From positions 5,248,001 through 5,312,000 of the forward strand of contig CM000151.3 in assembly GCA_000004695.1 (NCBI GenBank): a stretch of 64,000 nt of DNA. Reading direction: 5' to 3'. Position numbers and translations under genes: made by a program. The stretch is from Dictyostelium discoideum. Lineage: Eukaryota. The notes beneath the pieces are model-generated. The model saw only the letters and a program-made list of their open reading frames with translations. It ran no database searches and was not told the DNA's origin. Positions 12,668-52,728 of this stretch are shown piece by piece; position 1 is the first letter of the stretch, and each line of letters starts with the position of its first letter.

Positions 12668-14157
12668 ATGAGATTATTAGTTTTATTCCTTTTATTAACT
12701 CTAACTTTTTCAAATTTAATTGTAAGTTTTAATATTAAATTCTAAAATAAAAATTAAATTATAAAATTATTAACATTTTTAATTAGAATGCAGATAATTC
12801 AAAATCATCTTCATTGGAATCATCAAATGCACATGATTTATCATCTCCATCACCCTTAATTCAACCAAAACCTTCTGAAAATCAAGCAGGTATTCCAGCA
12901 TCTGGAAAACCAATTGATCCCAAAAAGGAAGTTGTAACTCTATCATCTTCTCCTTCAGTTTCACCAAGCTCTTCTCCAAGCTCATCACCATCATCCTCAC
13001 CATCTGTCTCCCCAAGCTCTTCACCTTCATCATCACCAAGTTCTTCCCCAAGTTCTTCACCAAGTTCTTCTCCTTCATCCTTACCATCTTCTTCACCATC
13101 AGTCCAACCAAGCTCTTCACCAAGTTCTTCACCTTCATCTTCACCATCAGCTCAACCAAGTTCCTCACCATCTTCTTCACAATCAGTCCAACCAAGCTCC
13201 TCCCCAAGCTCCTCACCATCCACCACCCCAAGTTCACCAAGTGAAACTCATTCATCATCATCCCATTCACAAGATTCTTCAGCACCAAGAGGTGTAGGAA
13301 AAATGGTAGTCCCAGCTGATAACAAAGAAACTGGATCATCATCATCAAATTCACAAGATTCATCTGCATCATCTTCTCAAGCTCCATCATCTTCATCATC
13401 TCATGGTTCATCTGAATCTTCTGCTCAAGGATCATCAGAACAAAATTCATCAGAACAAAATGGCTCTAAAAAATTGGTAGTCCCAGCCAGTGATAACAAA
13501 GAAGTTTCATCATCACATGGTTCATCTGCATCATCACAAGCACCATCATCTTCACATAGTTCTTCAGAATCTTCCCCAAATACTGCTTCTTCACATGAAT
13601 CTTCCCATGATGTATCATCCAATAATCCATCTTCAGAATCATCAGAAAATACTGCTTCTTTACATGCCTCTTCTCATGATTCTTCTTCTCATGCCTCTTC
13701 TCATGATGCTGCTTCTCACGCCTCTTCTCATGATGCTGCTTCTCATGCCTCTGCTCATGATGCTTCTTCACATGCCTCTTCTCATGATGCTGCTTCTCAC
13801 GCCTCTTCTCATGATGCTTCTTCACATGCCTCTTCTTCACATGATTCAAAAGCACCAAATGGAATTGGAAAATTAGTAGTCCCAGCTGATAACAAACAAA
13901 CTGGCTCGCACTCATCCAATTCTCAATCTGAAGAAAACTCAAAGGATAATTCATCAAATTCACAAGATTCATCAGCATCATCTTCTCAAGCACCATCATC
14001 TTCAAATTCTCATAGTTCATCTGAACCATCAACCAACAAAACCATTGAATCAAATGAAGACAAGAAATCTTCATCATCTCAAGCTGGTTCTCACACCTCC
14101 TCTTTATCAGAAAAATCACCAGCATTTCACCAATCTAGTTCCTCATCCAAACAATAG
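12668..14157 (+). CDS. Secreted serine-rich mucin-like protein with (SSSP)n, 3x GKLVVPADNK and (HASSHDAAS)n repeats; exons 12668..12721 and 12787..14157
   Basis: An 18-aa signal peptide (MRLLVLFLLLTLTFSNLI) is followed by a GTAAGT donor and a 65-nt intron with a ttaattAG acceptor. The long ORF is about 45% Ser. The antisense ORFs in the track are artefacts of the repeats. Confidence 0.6.
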
Positions 14158-40677: not shown

Positions 40678-42017
40678 AAAAACCATCTTGATGGTCGTCT
40701 GTTCAATTCTTTTAATGAAACTAAATCAAATATTGAATTATATGAATTGGTGAAAGGACTATATTTGGAAGTACCTATTCCGAATTGGAATATAATAATC
40801 TTTCCATGTTAAATTTTATTAATCAGTATATTCTTTGGATCTTTAAAATTGGATCTTTTGGAAGGGATTTTCAAATTTTTACATTTTTGGAAGTTAGCTT
40901 TAGTGCAACACTTTTTTTTACCTGTGAACTTCTAGGGATTTCCTTGAGTCAGCGGTGTTTTTTAAATTGTATTTTATTTTTTTATTTTTTTTTTTTTTTT
41001 TAAATATAAATAAATTATTTCACAGATTTGGATCTTCAGCAATAATTGTTTATTTCGTTTATTTAGATCAGATTTAGATCTTTATTTTGTAAAGATCAAG
41101 TAAAAAATTAATTTATATCTAAAAAAAAAAATATATGGCCATCAATTTGCGATACCACACTGAATTGTTGAACATTAACACAATAATTTATATAAATGAT
41201 TTATTAGTTAAAAATACTCGCCTAAATTATTGCTCATGTTTTTTCAGAATCTTGTAATAGAAAAATATAATAAAATTAAATAAATATATATAAATTAAAA
41301 TAAAGTAATAATAATAAGTTGATGTTATCGAAAATATCTATAATTATAAATGTTTTTTATTATTGAAAATTTTTAATTTTTATATTTGAGATTTAAAATT
41401 ATGTTTATGAGTTTTTCAATTGATTGACATTAAAAACTCACCACGTGGCTTTTTCCAAAAGTCTAATTATATAAACATAAAATATTTTAGTTTGCGAGCG
41501 AGATTGTATCTAATTTATTATCTTGATAAAACATAATTTTATTGTATCAATTTAATTATTACACAATTATAATACAACACTGAATGGTTCTATAAAGCTA
41601 TAAGCTATGACCTCTAGACATTTTTCATATAAAAACACAATAATATCGATATTACACCAGATATGGATTTGTAATCAACTCTACAGTGATGACAAAATTC
41701 AATACTCAATATTAGACTCGATTTTATTCTCAAAAAATGGTATAAATCTGAATCCTGGGGCCACATAAATAATGTAAAAAATTTTAAACTATCAAATTTT
41801 GAGCAATTGAGTATCAATATATTTAAGCTATAACTCCAAAATAATAATAAATATTCTTAAATCAATTTTTTTATAAAAAAAAAAATCTAAACACTTATTA
41901 TTACTAAAGATCTAAATAAGGATTTGGGTCAAATTATTCAAATTATAATTTGCCACTAAAATTTTCCGAGATGACCAAGATTCGAACCTATGCTGTTTGT
42001 TTTATCCATAAAAAAAG

Positions 42018-42088
42018 TGCCGCGACCTGGAATCGAACCAGGGTCAACAGAGCCACAATCTGATGTACTACCACTATACTATCACGGC
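42018..42088 (-). tRNA. tRNA-His (anticodon GUG)
   Basis: The reverse complement reads GCCGTGATAGTATAGTGGTAGTACATCAGATTGTGGCTCTGTTGACCCTGGTTCGATTCCAGGTCGCGGCA, which is near-identical in architecture to eukaryotic tRNA-His (GCCGTGATCGTATAGTGGTTAGTAC...TTGTGG...GGTTCGAATCC...CACGGCA). An A7 run on the plus strand at 42010..42016 gives the oligo(T) terminator. Confidence 0.8.
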
Positions 42089-42251: not shown

Positions 42252-42526
42252 GAATTTGATGTTTCTATGCCAATAATATATGAATGGTAAAAAATGAAGC
42301 TTTATCAATATTGTTTGTTTAATTAAAGAAAATATAACTAAATTTATTATCACTGTCAAACTGTGTGGGATAGTTTGTTTGATATTAAAAAACAAAAACA
42401 TCCGAGTATTTTATTTAAAAGTCCATAATTTATGATGCAATCTCATATTTATCAAAAAAATTTCACATTTAACTTTAATATCAAAATAATTTAAAAAAAC
42501 AAAAAAAAAAAATATAAATAGTTTTA

Positions 42527-43786
42527 TTAATTTCTTTGTATTCCATTTATTTTAAAGGAGGTAATACTCTTTTTTGTTTGTATTATTTTTTCTATTTCTT
42601 TGGTTAGTTTTTCATCTTCATCTTTAATACCTATTGTTAAACTATTGACCTTTTTGGGAAGAAATGAAAGGGATTCAATGTTTGTAAAGTTTGAACCAAG
42701 AGTTAGTGATGTTACAAATGGTGGAATACTGTTTGCTTTTAAATTTATATTATAATTGTGTAATTGTAAATCTGTTACAGAATAAGGTAGAAATCTTTTA
42801 TTAACAGGTTGTGTAAAATTAAAACCACATCTAAGTACTAATATTGATTCGTTTGGAAGATTAGTGCCATTTTCTTCAATGTTAAATTCATTGCCTAAAT
42901 CTAAATATTTAACAGATTCTGGTATTGAATCAAATTCAAGGTTTTGATTTAATTTATTAAATAAAAGATATTGAACAGATTGTGGTATTGCTCCTGGTAT
43001 TATCATTTTGTCATAAAAAGATAATGAAAGGTAGTTAATATCATTACCAATTGATTCTAATAAATCTGGTTCATTAGTTTCTAATTCTAATCTCTTTATA
43101 TTTGGTGATAAATACTTTTCAAATACTGAATCGCCTTCAATTTGAGTCTAAATATTAAATTTGTAAAAAAAAAAATTAGAATTTGGTTTCTTTCTTAGCA
43201 ATTTGTTTTTAACACTTACATTAGATAAAGATGTAATTAAACTTTCAATACAATGTCTAGCGTTTGTATCATACTGTAAACAATTTTGAATTATATTTTT
43301 AAATGAATTGGATAAGTGTTTTGGTATAGGAGGAATACCTTTATCATCTCTTTTAGACTTGGACAAATCCAAACCAGCCATTTCAATCATTGTACAACCA
43401 ATACAAAAAATATCAGATTTACTACCTGCTTTACCATTTTGTAATTTAACTTCTGGTGCCATATGTGAATCTGTACCTACAAATGAAAAATACTTTGAAC
43501 TCTTTTCAATTTGTTTTGATAATCCAAAATCTATGAATTTTACAATGATTTCATTATTTTTATCTTGAACCAAAAAGATGTGATCACCTTTAATATCACG
43601 ATGAATAACACCTGATTCGTGAATTTTCCTAAGTGCTTTGACGATTTTAATCATTAAAGATTTTATTTCTTCCTCTTCAAATCTTTTATTTGGTTTTTGT
43701 TTTATTAAGTCTGAAATGGATGTGGCATCTTCAATGTATTCTGTATAAATGTATTCCCCAATCTTCCTGAAAATGCTCATTATCAT
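42527..43786 (-). CDS. FNIP-repeat protein kinase (downstream paralogue): kinase C-lobe exon 43220..43786 and FNIP-repeat exon 42527..43147
   Basis: HRDIKGDHIFL, DFGLSK and GTDSHMAPE place this in kinase subdomains VIb-VIII. A GTAAGT donor and a tatttAG acceptor give a 72-nt intron in phase 0. C-terminal FNIP repeats (CGFNFTQPV, LGSNFTNIESL). The first ATG lies after the N-lobe, so the 5' end is unresolved (see findings). Confidence 0.55.
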
Positions 43787-45512
43787 TTAACATATTATCT
43801 GTTGATTGATTAAATGTGTTTAAAGGTGGTGATTTTTTAAAATTAACTATTTTACCATTGATGTTTATTGATGTGATATGCGATGGTATATATTTTTTTA
43901 ATTCCTCTATTTTGATATCGTTTTTGAAACCAAATTTCAAATTGATTATTGATGAAGGAAGATTTGATAATGATTCAAAGTGAGCGAAATTTGAACCAAG
44001 GGTTAGCATTATTATTGATCGAGGGATACTATTAGGTAGTATTTTTAAATTGTAATTGTATAATTGTAGATCTGTAACTGATGAAGGGATGTATCTTTGA
44101 TTAATGGTAAATGTAAATCCAGTTCTTAGTGTTAGTATCGAATCTTCAGGAATTAAAATTCCATACTTTTCAATATCAAATCCATCACCAAAGTCTAAAA
44201 ATTCTGGAAGAGTTAAGTTTATTTCGTTTTGAGAAAATTGATTTAATTTATTAAATACAAGATGTTTAACAGATTGAGGAATTGATCGTTTTTTAAGAGG
44301 ATGGTTGAATGATGGTAGCTTTAAATACTTAATACTGTCTGGTAATATACCTGGATCTAAAGGATAGTTGTATGATTGTAATATTAAGTACTCTACACCA
44401 TTAAATATTACCTTACTTTCAAGTGGTTGATTGTAGGTTGGTAATTCTAAATATTTTATACCATGAAAAGTTGGTGGAACAATTACCTGATTGAAAAGTG
44501 GTAATGTGGTACATTCATTTGGAAGGTAAATTGGTTCTATTGTTTCCACTACGCTGTTTTTAATTACATAGTTGTACAATTCATTGGAATTGAATCTAGC
44601 ATTTGGTTTGATTTGTAAACAATGTTGGATAATGTTTTTAAAATGATTTGATAAATGATCAGGGATTACAGGAATACCATTAATATCTAGCAATTTTAGG
44701 TCACCACCTACAATTTCAATTAATGATGAATCATTAATTTCAAAATGTAATTCTGAATCAAATATGGAATGGTCAAAACCAATTATTTTAATAAAATCTG
44801 TAGGTAACATTTTATCATTTTCATCATAAAGTATAAGAATATTTTGGCATTTAATATCAAAATGAATTATACCCATATCATGAATACTCTTTATTGATTT
44901 TATTATTTCAGTAGCTACAATAAATTGTTCTTTTTTATTTAACTTTCCAAATAATCTAGATAATGGAATTGCTTTATCAATATATTCTAAATAAACGTTA
45001 AAAGTATTATTTCCATCTTTACCATACCCATACAACTTTGGAGAGCATTTGCAAATATTTAAAATATCTATAATCCCGACCTATTAACAATGGGTTAATT
45101 AAATTTATAATGGAGGAAATTTAAAGAGATTTTAAATAAGTATGCTTACATTTTTATGTTTTTTGGTATAATAAACTTTATTTTCTGAAATATTTTTTTG
45201 AGGTTTATATTCTTCATGAATATATTGAATAATTTCCCAGTTTTGTTCGACATGTATTGGGTTATCTGATAATTTGAGATCTCTAACCCTAGTGGTTAAT
45301 GTTTCAGATGTGGGCAATTGTTTATTGCATGGTAAATGGAGACATTCCACACTATTTGGTAATGTTCCTGGTGTGAGTGCTTGATTATAGGATGATAAAT
45401 CGAGACATTCCACACCATTTGGTAGTACTCCTGGTGTGAGTGCTTGATTATAGGATGATAAATCGAGATATTTTACAAAAGGTGAGACTTCGGCGGTAAA
45501 AACAAATTCTTT
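43731..45512 (-). CDS. FNIP-repeat (pseudo)kinase paralogue (upstream copy): exon 43731..45080 and an upstream FNIP-repeat exon 45149..<=45512 with no identifiable in-frame ATG
   Basis: The kinase-like core is ILNICKCSPKLYGYGKDG...HFDIKCQNILI...IGFDHS. The HRD and DFG motifs are degenerate, so it is probably a pseudokinase. It is followed by about eight FNIP repeats. A GTAAGC donor and a ttaatAG acceptor (phase 0) join an upstream exon that contains a 66-bp tandem FNIP-coding repeat. Confidence 0.5.
45345..45480. repeat. 66-bp coding tandem repeat (2.1 copies), each encoding one 22-aa FNIP-type repeat (ECLDLSSYNQALTPGxLPNxV)
   Basis: Near-identical 66-nt units on the plus strand (…gacattccacac[c/t]atttggta[g/a]t[a/g][c/t]tcctggtgtgagtgcttgattataggatgataaatcgag…). 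Confidence 0.8.
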
Positions 45513-45774
45513 TCATGTTGTTGGGATAACTCGAGTTATCTTTTTCAAAAAAAACTTTTTTGTTCAGAATTAATTCAATTATTCACTAATAGTTCCAATA
45601 TTATTTATTCACAACCAAAATAAAAAATATTAAAAAAAAAAAAAAAGAAAAAATTTCAATAATAATTTTTATTTTATTTTATTATTACAACAATTTATTT
45701 AAATAGTTTTTTTTTTTTTTTTTTTTTTTTTAATTTTATATATATATATTTTTAGTTTTTTTTTTTTTTTTTTT

Positions 45775-48700
45775 TTAGTCAGATTTAAAACCACTAGAAA
45801 GACGTTGAGTAAAAGATTTTCTACTAACATGAGAAGTTGATAATAAATTATTAAAATTTGAATCATCATCATTCTCTAATGAAATTGTACTACCACTACC
45901 AGTTGAATTTCTATTTGGATTTGAACTATTTCTATTATGAGATTTTGTTGGAGTATTGTTACCACTACTTGAACCAGTATTATTAATCATTGAGGAATTT
46001 AATTGAATAACTGGAGAACCACTACCACCAAAATTATTACTACTTCCATAGATACTACTATTACTAAGATTATTATTACTACTAGTGCCATTAGAATTTG
46101 AATTTAAAGTTGGATAATAGGAGCCTTCTGGTGGTAAAACACCTAAAGACTCCATTAAATCAGTTAATTGAATATAACCTTGTTCCATTTCTTCTTGGAA
46201 TTCTTGAGAGGATTGATTTTCAACTAAACCTTTATTAATGAATAATGCTTCAGAGCAACTACCCAAAAATAATGATAAACTTTTCTTTAACTTTTTAATT
46301 TGTTCCAATGGATAATTATAGGCACCACTTGTTGGGTCAGTTGCCAAAAATACTCTACAAATTTCCTGTGGACCAATGTTAACTTGTAATCTTAGAGTAC
46401 CTTGAAGTACTTGTTGAAGTGTTTTTGGATTTGGTACTTTTGAACGAACTTCATTTGAAATGGTTTCAGTTCGTTGATCAATGGTTTCAATTGAATTTTC
46501 AATGGGTGACAAGATAACCTCTTGTTTTGAAATCACAGAGATACGTTTCTTTGTATATGGGAAATAGTTTGATGTCTTTAGAATGGTTTTACGTTTATAT
46601 TGTTCAGCGATTGAATTTGCACGACCTGCACCACTTTCAATGAATGGAGTTTCGAAAATGAATCGATTCAAATGAACGATTCTATCGAATGGAGTTCTAC
46701 GACCAACCAATTCCTCCTCAGTAAAGTAGGGTACAACAGAGGTAATTTGAAGATAACATTTGGCAGCATCTTGTTCAATCGATGAAATATCTACAGTTGA
46801 ACCTTCAATGATTACAATTGAATCCTCTGGTACAGAGAGTTTCTTTGAATAAAGTGATTTCAAACGATCTTTAATCTCGACCAATCTTGTAATCTTTGGT
46901 TCTTTATAGATGAATTCTTTACCATTCATCTCTTCAAATCTCTTTCCATAGAGACCAACTCTATAGTATGAACCAAGCATACGAGATTGAGTATTTGTAC
47001 ATTCAACAATTCTCTTGAAAATATCTTGTAAATCACCATGACAACGTGCCAACTCTTGATAATTTAAATGTTCTTCATGAACTGGTAATAACAATTTATA
47101 GACCAAATTTGCAATTTCAAAATATTCACTCTCTTTTAAGAGTAAAATAGCTTCTTGAACCAATTTCAAAAAGAAATCCAATGTAAACGATTGATTATCA
47201 TCGGCTCCATCTTCTTCACGTTCAATGAATGTATGAGATTCCTCTAAAGAGTTTTTATTAATTGCCATGAAATTATTTGAACCATTAATAGTTGGAATTG
47301 GTTTACCAATCAATGATAGATATTCAGCTACCAATGAAGACATATGTAAATAACATTGAGCTGCCTCTACATAATTCTCTTGAGTACGATGGAAATCTGC
47401 TAAACCTTGTAACCAACAAATACGAGTATCAGCATTACTTTTATTATTATCAGCGATACGATGATATAAATCGGCCACCATTTCAGGATCATCACGATGA
47501 TTATTAATCTTTATATTATCAATTACAAATGTATGTAAACGTTTGGTTAGATCTTCAATTTGTTTTGAGAATGATTTAGTACCAGCTTTATCAGCTTGAG
47601 CATAGGCATAGGAATTAATTGTATCCAATGATTTCTTTAAGAAATAATCATCATTGATACTTTTTACTATTGTTGATAAACCAATTGTAACTTGAGTTTT
47701 TGTACGTACGAAATTCTTTTTAGTTTGTTCGAAATTCTTTCTAAATAGAATATAGGTGAATGCTGATGCCTCTTCACGTGTGGTTTGATTCACTGAATTA
47801 CAATGACGAATTACTGCATTACAAAGATCCAAACAGAATGAATTATTATTTTCAAATAATATCTTTGGGAATCTATAAATGAATTGACGTAATGTTGCAT
47901 AAAGTTTTGGTACCAATTGAACTGGTTGATTCTTTTTTAACATTGAATGTAAAAGATTGAATATCTTTTCAATTACATCGAAATAATGTGTTGTTTTAAG
48001 ATCTCTATCGTATTCACACATAAATTCATCAACAACATCTAAAACTACAGATCCAACTTCCAATGCTAAATGACTCTCTAATCTATCATCATAATCTGAA
48101 ATATTAATTTTATTTTGTGCTAATGTACTTTTCATTCTTTTTTCATTTCTAAGTGTACCACTACCTGATGAAACATCTCTTGTTGTACTTGGTGAATAAT
48201 TTGAATTATTATTTTGATTTTGATATCCTGATCCTGATCCATTTAATGATGATGTTGATGTTGATTCAATTAAACTACCACCACTACTACCACTTGAACC
48301 ACTACTTTTTGATGAATAACCTGAACCACTACCACCACCACTACTTGTTACAAATGATGTTGATAATAAATTTGAATTACTTGTACTATTAATTAAAATA
48401 GTTGAAGATGATGGACTACCACTAACATTATTATTATTATTATTACTACTACCAACATTATTATTATTAGAATAATTATTTTCTAAAACACTCTTTCTTG
48501 AATCAACTCTTTTTTCACGTAATGATCTATTATATAATTTTTTACTACCATATGGTGAATTTCTAGAATTTGAATAAAAATCTTCTAAAATTGATTTAGC
48601 AGTTGAAGTACGTAAAGATGTTGAAGATTCAACTTTATCCATTAAAATTTCTTTACCAACAAATTCGAAAATCTCTAAACATTGATTTAAAATATCAAAT

Positions 48701-51667
48701 AATGTTACATATTTTGCTTTTGGTTCTTCACGCCACCAAATCTTTATTAGATTGATATGAATAGTTTTCAAAAGATAAATGAATGAAACTAAAATATTTC
48801 TTTTCATAATAAAAGAATCATCTTTAATATTATCCCAATTATTTACTACAATGGTTAAATAAGGTGTGAAAACACCAACGATTCTTTGTTTATTTGATTG
48901 ATCGAACCATCTTGTATCCATTTCTAATCTTGTTAGGGTATCTCTTAATGAATTTGCAGCATCCATACGAATTAAAGGTATTTTTGAACCAATACCAGCG
49001 CTAATATTATTTAAAAGTAAATCTGAAAGGAAATGTTTTGAAGAGGTTAAAATATTTGTCAACTTTGAGGTTGAATCGATTCTAAATGGTAATGGTATAT
49101 TCAATTGAACGAAATAATCATTTTGGCAAATGATTCTAAGGAATTCGAATTTCAATTCATAGATTTCCATTTCATTCTCACCACCGATTTGATTGTTATG
49201 AGTGAAATCGTTGACTGCACGATCAATGATTTTAAATACATAACCCCGATCAGCTATTGAAACCAAACAAGATATGAAACCTGCTAAACTTCTAATTAAT
49301 TCTTTAGCCAATTTAAAGGTATGTTTTGCACGTGTTGATGATTCCCATCTTAGAATTGAAATCAATTTCGCCAATTGTGGTCTAACACCAACGAATCTAC
49401 CCTTACGAGTTTTATTCTCTTCTCTCTTATTACGTTCAATCAATGATAATGCCATTGATTTATGAATTACTTGAAAGAAGAATCTAGAGAATCTAAGAAT
49501 ATTTTCAGAGTTTTGTTCTTGGAATCTAACCAATTCTAACCATGTTTTAATTAAAACCTCATATGTTGGTAAAAATTCAATATTACTACCTGCTTGATTG
49601 TTTACATTTGAGAAAACATATTTAACATAACGATCCGATATAGTACTACCAACATCATTAACCATTGATAATATTTCACCAATAGTTATAAATGTTACCA
49701 TTGATAACTCTGATGAATGTTGTTGATTTGTCATTAATCTAAATAATTGATTCATTAAAATTGGGAAAAATTGAATTATACATTCTAATTTACTTGATGG
49801 TAACAATTTAATTGATTTAATTAATTGTTCCATTGTTGAATTTGATGGTGATATATTCGTTGTTGTTGTTGTTGTTGTTGTTGTTGTAGTTGTTGAATTA
49901 TTATTATTATTATTATTACTATTTGATAAATTTTGAGATGAAATTGTTGGTGAAGTTAAAATTGAAGGTGAAGTTACTGATGGTGTTGAAGTTGGAGTTG
50001 GTGATAAACTTGGTGAAGCTAAACAATTATTTATAAATGAAAACTGTGAAATATTATTAAAGAAACTATTTAAATAATCATCAGTTGAATGAATGGATGA
50101 TACTAATTTTGAACGTACTTGAAAGATTGGTTTCTTATTATCAATATATTTGATTGTTGCCTCTTGATCACGTCTAGTATAACGTGATGGGAATTCATAA
50201 GCCAATGGTAAATTGAAAACTTCTTCACCAATCATCTTTCCATATTGAATGATTGGTAAAACACCATAAGCCACTGGTTGATCGACTAAATCACCACCAC
50301 CACTACTCTTTTGACAAGCGATATGATAGAATGTGAATAGAATATGTAAAGATGGTGATGGTGATAATGGTAATCTAATCTTAATTTCATCATTGAAAAC
50401 TGGTGTTTTTGAATGATAGGTAACTTGTGTATACGCTTTGGAATTGAATGATTGAGTTTTACTCTTACCATAGATTGCTTTCAAACCTTCTGGACATAAT
50501 GGATTCTCATCAGTCTCTAATAATTGTATTTTACATGTAAGATTTCTAGCTGCAAATGATCCACTACGATTTGATAAATTCAATGTCTCTGGATATAAAT
50601 AAAGATTATTTACAAATTCTGTATTAATTTCAAATCTTTGATTTGATGAAAATTCATGACATTCTTTAATAATATTTTCAATACCAATATTTGATGGTAT
50701 TTTACCAGGTTGATTAATATTATTATTATTTTGTTCAGTACTATTTTGAGTTGTTGTTGTTGTTGATTGTTGTTGTTGTTGATCTAATTGTGGTAAATCA
50801 ATTTTAATTAAAGAACTATTTAAAATAAATTTTTTATTATTTAAATAAGGTGATTGTTGATCATTTGGTAAAATTTCTTTAATATCAACTAAACACTGAC
50901 CAGGAATAATTTTTAATTTCTTTGCAGAAGCACTTTTTGAACCTTCTGATAAAGTTGAATCCAACATTGAAGAATCAGTCATTTCTGAACGATGACGATA
51001 GAGTGGACGAATTGGGGTATCTTCACCTACACCCTCTTCAAAAACTGGTACACAACCCCAACAGAAAGCTTGTCTAAATGCACCCAATCTTGTGCAAGAT
51101 GATTTAATTGATTCTTTGAATTTATCCTTTTCCTTTTCTTTCAAGTTCATTTTAATGTATGGTTCAGAATGATCCTCTAAATCACCGGTTAAAACTTTTT
51201 CAACCTTAAGTATCAAATAAATATTCTCCAACTCTGATGAAGATCGGGCGGTAACATTAAATATTGCAGATTTTGCCAATGTTACATCATCGACAACCAC
51301 ATCTTTTGATGAGGCACCCGATGAAGTTGTTATATGACTAGTGGTCATTTTAAAGGATTTATCATTGATGAAATCGAAATAGAATGTCTCTGATAATCTT
51401 GCTTTCTTTTGAATATCATATAAATACATTGAACAATAGAATGGTTCAGGTTCATCATCACCATCCCAAAATTTAAATGATAAATCTTTGAATGTAACTT
51501 GAATAATTCTTTTCTTTTCTTTTTGATATGGTGTTGGTTCTTGATATTGTACAGTTGGTTCTGATAATGTAAAATATGAATATAATCCAAATTCTGTATT
51601 ATTATTTTCACCATTATTATTATTATTATTGTTATTACTATTATTATTATTTTCACCATTATTATTT

Positions 51668-51701
<34 letters not shown>

Positions 51702-52728
51702 TGTTAATTAAAACTTTCTCCTTTCTAAATTGTCTTTCTAAATAATGTAAATGTAATTTATCAGGTTTATCAGTTTTAAGTGTATTTTGAATTTGAAATT
51801 GATGTTGTTGTGATAAATAATTAACTTCTTTAAGATTTTGTTGTTGTTGAAATTGTAATGCTGCCATTTGTTGTTGTTGTGGTGTTTGTTGTTGTGGTGC
51901 TAATTTGGCTTCTAATGCTGCTTCCGATGCTATCTTTTGAGCTTGTGATATACTAATATTAACATTACTATTTAAATTATTAATATTTACAATTGGTTCC
52001 GTCTTAAACTCAATTCTTTCCTCTGTCAATTGATGTACTATTGCACCTGGTGTTTCGTTTTTATAATAATTAAATGTTTTCAATGATTTCCATGTATTAT
52101 TTGAATAAAATTTAATACAATCATCAATATGTTGATTCTTATTTTCTTTATAATCCTATAAATATTTTTAAAAAAAAAATAATTAATAATTAATAATTAA
52201 TAATAAAAAACAACAATTAATAATAATTATTATTATTATTTTTAAAATACAAACAAATGGATTAGATTTAATTCTATTTTCTTTTGGTAAATTTTCAATT
52301 TGATTTTGTGTTGCATCATCAGGGATTACAACTAATTCTCTAGAGACTTCTCTATTGATTTCTTTAGATTCATAGTAATATCTTTCGAAATCGAATGGAT
52401 AATCTTCTTCTTTTTCAATTTCATCCTCTAATAGAATCGATGGGATTTGTCTTGTATTTCTCTTTTGGTAGTTTTCATTATATTGTGCCAAGTCACTGGT
52501 TGAATTTGATACTGAAACATTACCACTACTACCACCACCACCATTGGATATTGATGATGTTGATGATGATGCTGATGATATCGATTGTGATAATATTGAT
52601 GAGTTTGGTGATGATGATGACATTGAGGTTGGTAATGTTTGACTATTACTTGATCCTGTTAAATTCATACTACTACCACCTGTCGATTTTCTACTCTTTA
52701 AAAATGTAGAAACTTTTTTACCTTCCAT
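45775..52728 (-). CDS. DOCK-family Rho/Rac guanine-nucleotide exchange factor (DHR-1 C2-like and DHR-2 catalytic domains); exons 52255..52728 and 45775..52155 (~2284 aa)
   Basis: DHR-1 region: ...NRSGSFAARNLTCKIQLLETDENPLCPEGLKAIYG...PVFNDEIKIRLPLSPSPSLHILFTFYHI... DHR-2 region: ...ICWLQGLADFHRTQENYVEAAQCYLHMSSLVAEYL...PYFTEEELVGRRTPFDRIVHLNRFIFETPF. Exon 1 (the Ser-rich ORF 52183..52728) joins through a GTTTGT donor and a ttatAG acceptor (99-nt intron, phase 0). Confidence 0.8.

Follow-up and report, generated by a model that had tools for sequence, protein, structure and literature searches.

An apparent pair of overlapping FNIP-repeat kinase genes in Dictyostelium discoideum is very probably the disabled dual-domain kinase gene fnkF_ps

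The closest described counterparts of the locus reported here come from the Dictyostelium kinome survey of Goldberg et al. 2006 (PLoS Genet 2:e38, PMC1420674), whose Table S2 lists fnkE (DDB0229870) of strain AX4 as an intact gene with two kinase domains, with the motif pairs HFDIKCQN/HRDIKSDH and GFD/DFG; its domains a and b begin at residues 368 and 860. The same table enters DDB0203080p as FNIPK-F_ps or fnkF, a dual-domain pseudogene of class FNIPK/FNIPK with the motif pairs HFDIKCQN/HRDIKGDH and GFD/DFG, and the published translation of this entry begins MKRICFYRRSLTF-X-VKYLDLSSYNQALTPG..., where X is a frameshift. According to the text of the survey, its 15 kinase pseudogenes were called where conserved regions carry frameshifts or nonsense codons, and all of them except DDB0187382_ps and DDB0204419_ps were assigned parents (PMC1420674). 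Our searches of the literature on fnkE, fnkF and FNIPK found nothing relevant beyond this paper. Here we analyse a 64,000-nucleotide stretch of the D. discoideum genome (hereafter the window: assembly GCA_000004695.1, contig CM000151.3, positions 5,248,001 to 5,312,000) and identify a locus on its minus strand, at 45516..42527 in window coordinates, that is very probably the pseudogene fnkF_ps (FNIPK-F_ps, DDB0203080), a disabled FNIP-repeat kinase gene with two kinase domains.

An earlier note, made from the letters of this DNA alone, had described the locus as two tandem FNIP-repeat kinase paralogues in frames one base apart, neither of them with a start codon. Three-frame translation of 45700..42400 bore out this description of the parts and placed both reading units on the minus strand, as are all features given below unless stated otherwise. 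The upstream frame, interrupted by an intron at 45149..45081, spans 45512..43734, contains HFDIKCQN at 44864-44841 and IGFDHS at 44783-44766, and ends ...NDNEHFQEDWGIHLYRIH before a TGA at 43733-43731. The downstream open reading frame (ORF) opens at an ATG at 43786, immediately 3' of a TAA (43789-43787), contains HRDIKGDH (43603-43580), DFGLSK (43531-43514) and an APE motif, and extends through FNIP repeats to 42530 before its TAA stop (42529-42527). The two ORFs overlap by 56 nucleotides (43731..43786), one base out of step. A usable start in frame is missing from both units: the sole ATG near the 5' end (45516-45514) is one base off the FNIP frame, and that at 43786 lies in linker sequence read out of frame. 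The FNIP frame does open at 45512, where the note had set the 5' limit of the locus, but the true 5' end is at 45516. Pfam matched both Pkinase and FNIP (PF05725) in each half, the combination of domains that places the locus in the FNIPK subfamily (STE group, Dicty3 family), and in both units the Pkinase match begins only at about position 71-74 of the 263-position profile.

The identity of the locus follows from the published translation of FNIPK-F_ps, with which it is identical over the 398 residues (13+385) that were compared. The N-terminal remnant, an ATG and 13 codons (MKRICFYRRSLTF; 45478..45516) read one base out of step with the FNIP repeats, gives the 13 residues with which the published translation opens; the published X falls at the same place as a TTTT run (45477..45480), between ...SLTF and VKYLDLSS...; and the 385 residues after X match the window exactly once a 69-nucleotide intron (intron 1, 45081..45149, GTAAGC...AATAG) has been spliced out. 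Both breaks of frame lie in conserved coding sequence, the ground on which the survey called its pseudogenes: the shift at TTTT stands between residues homologous to those of fnkE, and the second, at 43754/43753, is a deletion within kinase domain b. The locus was thus already catalogued as a pseudogene in 2006, and what the earlier note saw is real but its identity is not new; our additions to the published record are the nature of the second lesion, a loss within kinase a, and the finding that the nearest relative has been broken independently.

The earlier note had proposed alignment to the fnk family as a check, and this alignment settles the question in favour of one dual-domain gene. Using the kinase b remnant as query, an exhaustive phmmer search found the protein RB653_010392 of Dictyostelium firmibasis (P0164, 1074 amino acids; E=1e-98), in which N-terminal FNIP repeats, a pseudokinase a (HFDIKCEN), a FNIP block, a linker, a kinase b and a FNIP block ending ...INGKQRRN follow one another. 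When the three frames of the window locus were joined across the two breaks into one conceptual translation, this proved collinear with P0164 from end to end, with identity in 512 of the 920 aligned columns (56%) and with large gaps confined to two places, the kinase a activation segment and the kinase b N-lobe; amino-acid identity is 63% in kinase b and 61% in the third FNIP block. Since this intact 1074-residue protein is collinear with the whole locus, the two units are kinase domains a and b of a single dual-domain gene, of the fnkE type by its motifs, and not two paralogues. The suggestion that the downstream unit might be a truncated duplicate gives way to the same alignment, in which that half is domain b of a dual-domain gene. 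The order in the window is the same as in P0164, running from FNIP repeats through pseudokinase a, a FNIP block, the linker and the kinase b remnant to a last FNIP block. The earlier note's count of about eight repeats per unit needs adjusting: there are about nine after kinase a and about six or seven after kinase b, and three more, together with a degenerate N-lobe start, precede kinase a, which gives the upstream unit the layout FNIP, pseudokinase, FNIP.

This dual-domain architecture is common to fnkE, two D. firmibasis genes and one Dictyostelium purpureum protein, the last with three kinase stretches. P0164 shares with the window locus the intron after kinase b. It differs in having an intron in the N-lobe of domain b, which the window copy has lost, and in having none in the N-lobe of domain a, where fnkF_ps has one. 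P0164 and its 1527-residue neighbour are both intact and in one frame, with 44-63% amino-acid identity to the window locus, and both lie in genomic surroundings unlike those of the window; a search for synteny of the flanks with D. cf. discoideum or D. firmibasis gave no match. The two D. firmibasis genes (L002, 10001-13485 and 16554-21367; 1074 and 1527 amino acids) are convergent, 3 kilobases (kb) apart and about equally distant from the window locus. A bird protein that also ranked high (P0166) was set aside as irrelevant, as it has four tandem PAK-like domains and no FNIP repeats.

For fnkE, the comparison covers the first 400 residues and the fragments of both kinase domains that are given in the supplements of the kinome paper. 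Within these, fnkE shares with fnkF_ps the architecture and the unusual domain a motifs HFDIKCQN and GFD, its N-lobe a is near-identical in wording (PQKNISENKVYYT.KHKN..IID.LNI), and the activation segments of domain b are near-identical. It differs in having about 14 N-terminal FNIP repeats, as against three in fnkF_ps, in a complete kinase b N-lobe (WEIIS..., ...AIKK...), which is deleted in fnkF_ps, in a domain a that keeps the segment THMAPEIKLK...SDIWSLGCT, lost in fnkF_ps, and in the kinase b motif, which is HRDIKSDH in fnkE and HRDIKGDH in fnkF_ps. fnkE is the probable parent of fnkF_ps. Because intact relatives also carry degenerate motifs in domain a (both HFD and GFD in fnkE, HFDIKCEN in P0164), this degeneracy is ancestral and not a decay peculiar to the window copy. 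The earlier note was right to call the upstream kinase a pseudokinase.

At the first junction the window reads ...AGT CTC ACC TTT T GTA AAA TAT CTC GAT..., so that ...FYRRSLTF-(+1)-VKYLDLSSY stands where fnkE has ...FYQVSLKN-VKYLDLSSY. Placed by eye, CFYRRSLTF pairs with SFYQVSLKN of fnkE ahead of the shared VKYLDLSSY, a stretch too short for statistics. On the simplest reading, a surplus T within the run 45480-45477 would account for the 5' offset.

The second junction is of another kind. A global alignment of the window to L001, a related locus of D. cf. discoideum, with its inverted block turned back, shows one clean gap of 293 nucleotides, a size good to within a few bases, since the breakpoints of the L001 inversion are themselves imperfect. 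Where the window has TGG GGA A/TAC ATT TAT ACA GAA, L001 has TGG GAA A...293 nt...TAC ATT TAT ACA GAA, and against P0164 the same place (43753..43754) is a gap of 71 residues. The linker frame of L001 runs on as ...LNTFNQSTYNILNDNEHFEEEWEIISTLGSGNFGKVFKARNIDGFING, and also as EEEWEIISTLGSGNFGKVFKARNI..., at the point where the window copy breaks, and the rest of its N-lobe b lies in the 393-nucleotide inverted block, as ...SKVSLCAIKKIEKKDKLRG, a GTATGT...ATAG intron and KLSTEVEILDKLKDNEHSMKYYGYGYDEDYNLYIYTEYIEDATS.... The deletion thus took the glycine-rich loop, the VAIK lysine, the αC helix and strand β4 of kinase b, together with a conserved intron that is present in both L001 and D. firmibasis. 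The second offset is, on this alignment, not a one-nucleotide insertion or deletion but a by-product of the deletion of about 293 nucleotides, at whose junction one base was left over, and hence the +1 shift. Among the alternatives that the earlier note offered, the one that holds is a single gene whose frameshift is real; its one-nucleotide form does not fit this second break. The out-of-frame readings in the overlap (43731..43786) can be named from the junction alignment and the frame translations: MIMSIFRKIG is the linker NMLNDNEHFQEDWG and IHLYRIH-stop is YIYTEYIE, each read out of frame, so neither is real coding sequence. The deletion also corrects the motif 'INGK' in Table S2, which lies in ...SININGK... 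at the end of the second FNIP block and is no real β3 strand or equivalent of VAIK.

A displaced N-lobe exon, which the earlier note had considered as something it might have overlooked, was sought by tblastn, the queries being the L001 and D. firmibasis peptides of N-lobe b, and no match was found elsewhere in the 64-kb window. Kinase b thus has no glycine-rich loop, β3 VAIK lysine or αC glutamate, the segment that bears them being deleted and absent from the window; the note's observation that the downstream kinase lacks its N-lobe agrees with this, its Pfam match starting at profile position 74. Of the motifs the note had called intact, HRD, DFG and APE are indeed present, but the asparagine of the catalytic loop is a histidine (HRDIKGDH), as it is in domain b of fnkE and in P0164. 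With the adenosine triphosphate (ATP)-binding lobe gone, joining the frames could still not make kinase b catalytic, and resequencing, which the earlier note had recommended for both junctions, cannot restore an active kinase.

A third lesion, in kinase a, leaves the frame untouched. About 27 residues, which comprise the activation segment with APE and reach into the beginning of subdomain IX, have been lost between 44748 and 44726, where the window keeps only HFEINDS between FIKIIGFDHSIFDSEL and SLIEIVGGD; the missing segment is retained in domain a of fnkE and in P0164.

The remaining parts of the locus fall in place around these lesions. After the TTTT run, the rest of exon 1 (45150..45476) encodes the three FNIP repeats (Pfam E=1.6e-22) and then the first part of N-lobe a, which is degenerate (NWEIIQYIHEEY...KVYYTKKHKN) and has no glycine-rich loop or VAIK lysine; this stretch matches the published translation. 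Intron 1 precedes the αC equivalent of domain a; its donor and most of its length are conserved in L001, and its position matches that of the domain b N-lobe intron in relatives. Pseudokinase a follows at 44556..45080 (Pkinase E=8.5e-10, profile positions 71-145 only), then the second FNIP block of about nine repeats at 43926..44504 (E=1e-25), collinear with P0164. The inter-domain linker (43755..43925) has 92% DNA identity to L001 9718-9789, aligns with ...HKIDDWEIISTLGKGNFG of P0164 and ends ...NDNEHFQEDWG, with whose W kinase domain b (WEIIS...) begins. The kinase b remnant (43220..43753) comprises subdomains V-XI, with YIYTEYIED..., HRDIKGDH, DFGLSK and APE (Pkinase E=9.8e-34, profile positions 74-258). 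A 72-nucleotide intron (intron 2, 43148..43219, GTAAGT...TTTAG), of phase 0 on both sides, has its counterpart at the equal position in D. firmibasis (...HLSN/NQIK...), and the third FNIP block of about six or seven repeats, with the stop, occupies 42527..43147 (E=1.1e-22).

L001 (8876-11400; gene model ACTFIY_003578, P0002) was the closest DNA relative that we obtained. Its identity to the window is 94% in kinase b, 87% in the third FNIP block, where it runs on for 213 nucleotides beyond the fnkF_ps stop, and 83% in exon 1 (L001 9322-9719). It shares HRDIKGDH and the QYI.EEY insertion with fnkF_ps and differs in retaining N-lobe b, though within the 393-nucleotide inversion, and it is non-syntenic on either side, with flanking genes other than those of the window. 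L001 is itself broken: a 1.26-kb deletion from inside intron 1 to the linker has removed kinase a and the second FNIP block, a deletion of 186 nucleotides lies at the end of kinase b, four small insertions or deletions shift the frame in block 3, and its annotated protein of 274 amino acids is a patchwork that includes out-of-frame text. As these lesions are its own and differ from those of the window copy, the fnkE/F lineage has been decaying more than once, whichever orthologue L001 is.

Ratios of non-synonymous to synonymous divergence (dN/dS) between the window, read in its own frames, and L001 were estimated by the Nei-Gojobori method, giving 0.77 for the C-lobe of kinase b (113 codons), 0.91 for the segment from αD to HRD, 0.87 for the linker and 0.62 for the third FNIP block, with an overall value of 0.57 on the small counts of 43 synonymous and 102 non-synonymous differences. 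Across this pair of genomes, protein identity is 98.2% for fnkA and 97.4% for fnkD, both intact paralogues, and 98.6-99.7% for genes neighbouring the locus in the window. These values suggest relaxed constraint on fnkF_ps, with the proviso that the counts are small and that L001 may be orthologous to fnkE or to fnkF.

On its 3' side, a tRNA-His(GTG) gene lies at 42017-42088 on the minus strand, about 440 nucleotides from the fnkF_ps stop; L001 ceases to resemble the window at position 42314, short of this gene. Dictyostelium tRNA genes are landing sites for the retroelements TRE and DGLT-A. On the other side, 259 nucleotides upstream of the fnkF_ps ATG, ends a gene of the DOCK/zizimin type (45775-52728, minus strand; DOCK-C2 and DHR-2 lobes A, B and C), of which a two-exon model with an intron at 52254-52156 gives 2284 amino acids and had no exact match in the protein collection. 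In another D. discoideum assembly, GCA_054883475.1 (L003 1-2386, corresponding to window ~42732-40345), a model of 3221 amino acids extends across the 3' end of fnkF_ps to a point about 2.2 kb past its stop; since the 2284 residues of the DOCK gene and about 937 more add up to 3221, it looks like an automated fusion of DOCK and fnkF. Elsewhere in the window, two reconstructions of the gene at 33-39 kb (1754 and 1773 amino acids) had no exact match in the protein collection; one other ORF is identical to DDB_G0275047 of strain AX4, and four match exactly exon-sized parts of DDB_G0275039, DDB_G0275301, RACK1 and galE, all of them on chromosome 2, to which the window belongs. The guanine-plus-cytosine (G+C) content is 12-35% in most 1-kb bins, the fnkF_ps region being 75% A+T; the only G+C-rich kilobase (13000-14000; 0.42) has a strongly negative GC skew and a Ser/Pro-rich coding repeat (SSPSSSPS...) with stop-free ORFs on both strands. 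A further FNIPK-like locus (P0001, P0003, P0004, P0005, P0319), with HRDIRGSN and with GFE replacing DFG, lies outside the window; its D. discoideum models start MEYIDG... or lack the HRD segment, a D. cf. discoideum model being full length at 487 amino acids; this may be another decaying FNIPK copy.

In the explanation we favour, the ancestor would have been a dual-kinase FNIP gene with the layout still intact in D. firmibasis and fnkE, and the fnkF_ps copy would have arisen by duplication of an fnkE-like gene. The lesions seen in it are a surplus T at 13 codons from the ATG, the loss from domain a, without a shift of frame, of about 27 residues around its APE motif, and a deletion of about 293 nucleotides that took subdomains I-IV of domain b and an intron and left one base too many. 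Because the surplus T and the deletion each shift the frame by +1, the locus mimics two overlapping ORFs without starts. No full-length protein would be made, and the copy would be drifting under relaxed constraint. Several points weigh against this explanation. The reality of the single-T lesion depends solely on the statement of the kinome authors; L001 may be an orthologue of fnkE rather than of fnkF; the overall dN/dS lies below 1, on small counts; pairs of GT and AG that could bridge the frames do exist in the locus; and stop-free runs of 449, 212 and 206 codons persist despite the A+T content. As such long runs survive in very A+T-rich DNA, inactivation was probably recent, or else some part of the locus is still constrained.

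The persistence of these frames, and the fact that both shifts are +1, would also suit a working gene, in which splicing or +1 ribosomal frameshifting bypasses the breaks to yield a FNIP scaffold with two dead kinase-like domains. A GT..AG pair at 43855..43741 (115 nucleotides) would give ...HITSININ/EYIEDATS..., the TTTT at junction 1 would permit tRNA-Phe to re-pair in the +1 frame, and the 3221-residue model in the other strain spans the 3' end. Yet the bridging introns have weak donors (GTTTCA, GTAAAA, GTTAAT), a G+C content of 25-34% where clear introns of the neighbouring gene have 2-9% and the two real fnkF introns 18-22%, and would excise sequence that codes in relatives, in which both sites are passed in one frame and the shifts are not conserved; moreover, the A-site codon at TTT-TGT is the ordinary TGT, junction 2 has no slippery site, and no splice could restore the missing N-lobe b. 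Introns of this masking kind in kinase pseudogenes were held by Goldberg et al. to be artefacts of gene prediction, their survey stating that automated models had hidden the lesions of pseudogenes behind bogus introns or truncations (PMC1420674). A working gene is therefore very improbable, and there is just a slim chance that the locus is not fully dead, being transcribed, perhaps by read-through from the DOCK gene, into a spliced or frameshifted FNIP scaffold with two dead kinase folds.

We regard it as extremely unlikely that the locus holds two genes, a pseudokinase-FNIP gene and an independently expressed, N-terminally truncated kinase-FNIP duplicate read from the ATG at 43786. That ATG follows a stop and opens a spliceable product of 395 amino acids, and some models of the further FNIPK-like locus start at the equivalent point (P0001, MEYIDG...). 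Against this, its first 10 codons, MIMSIFRKIG, are out-of-frame linker, it sits inside the upstream ORF with no intergenic room for a promoter, and in D. firmibasis, as in fnkE, a single intact gene spans both halves collinearly. Exact look-ups of the 212-residue product of the unspliced ORF (43786..43148) and of a nearby 153-residue ORF returned no entry on record. A word-indexed protein search gave at most 55% identity for full-unit queries and no match for kinase a alone, with no entry for the locus itself or for fnkE; this fits a locus that is not annotated as coding but is weak evidence, because the same search missed P0164, which is 55-63% identical and was found at E=1e-98 by the exhaustive search; a blank in the index is not absence. 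Errors of sequencing or assembly in an intact dual-domain gene would account for a single base in a homopolymer, a typical error site, as at junction 1, and another D. discoideum assembly does differ from the window by 0.5-0.7%. No error of base calling, however, removes 293 nucleotides with an intron at junction 2, and kinase a bears a further, in-frame loss. The kinome authors, for their part, inspected individual reads and expressed sequence tags wherever frameshifts or stops blocked a model and, in the account their paper gives, corrected four other genes in this way, fnkF not among them (PMC1420674). That such errors disguise an intact gene is thus exceedingly unlikely, the case of the single T depending on what the authors state, and the reading of the locus as the dual-domain pseudogene fnkF_ps is the one we retain.

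The importance of this is slight beyond annotation hygiene. In this locus two +1 lesions let a dual-domain gene pose as two overlapping genes without starts, and automated pipelines still place protein models on it, as the 274-residue patchwork in D. cf. discoideum and the 3221-residue model in another D. discoideum assembly attest. If decay has indeed occurred repeatedly and independently in sister lineages, the fnkE/F genes would offer a small natural series for the dismantling of a dual-domain kinase.

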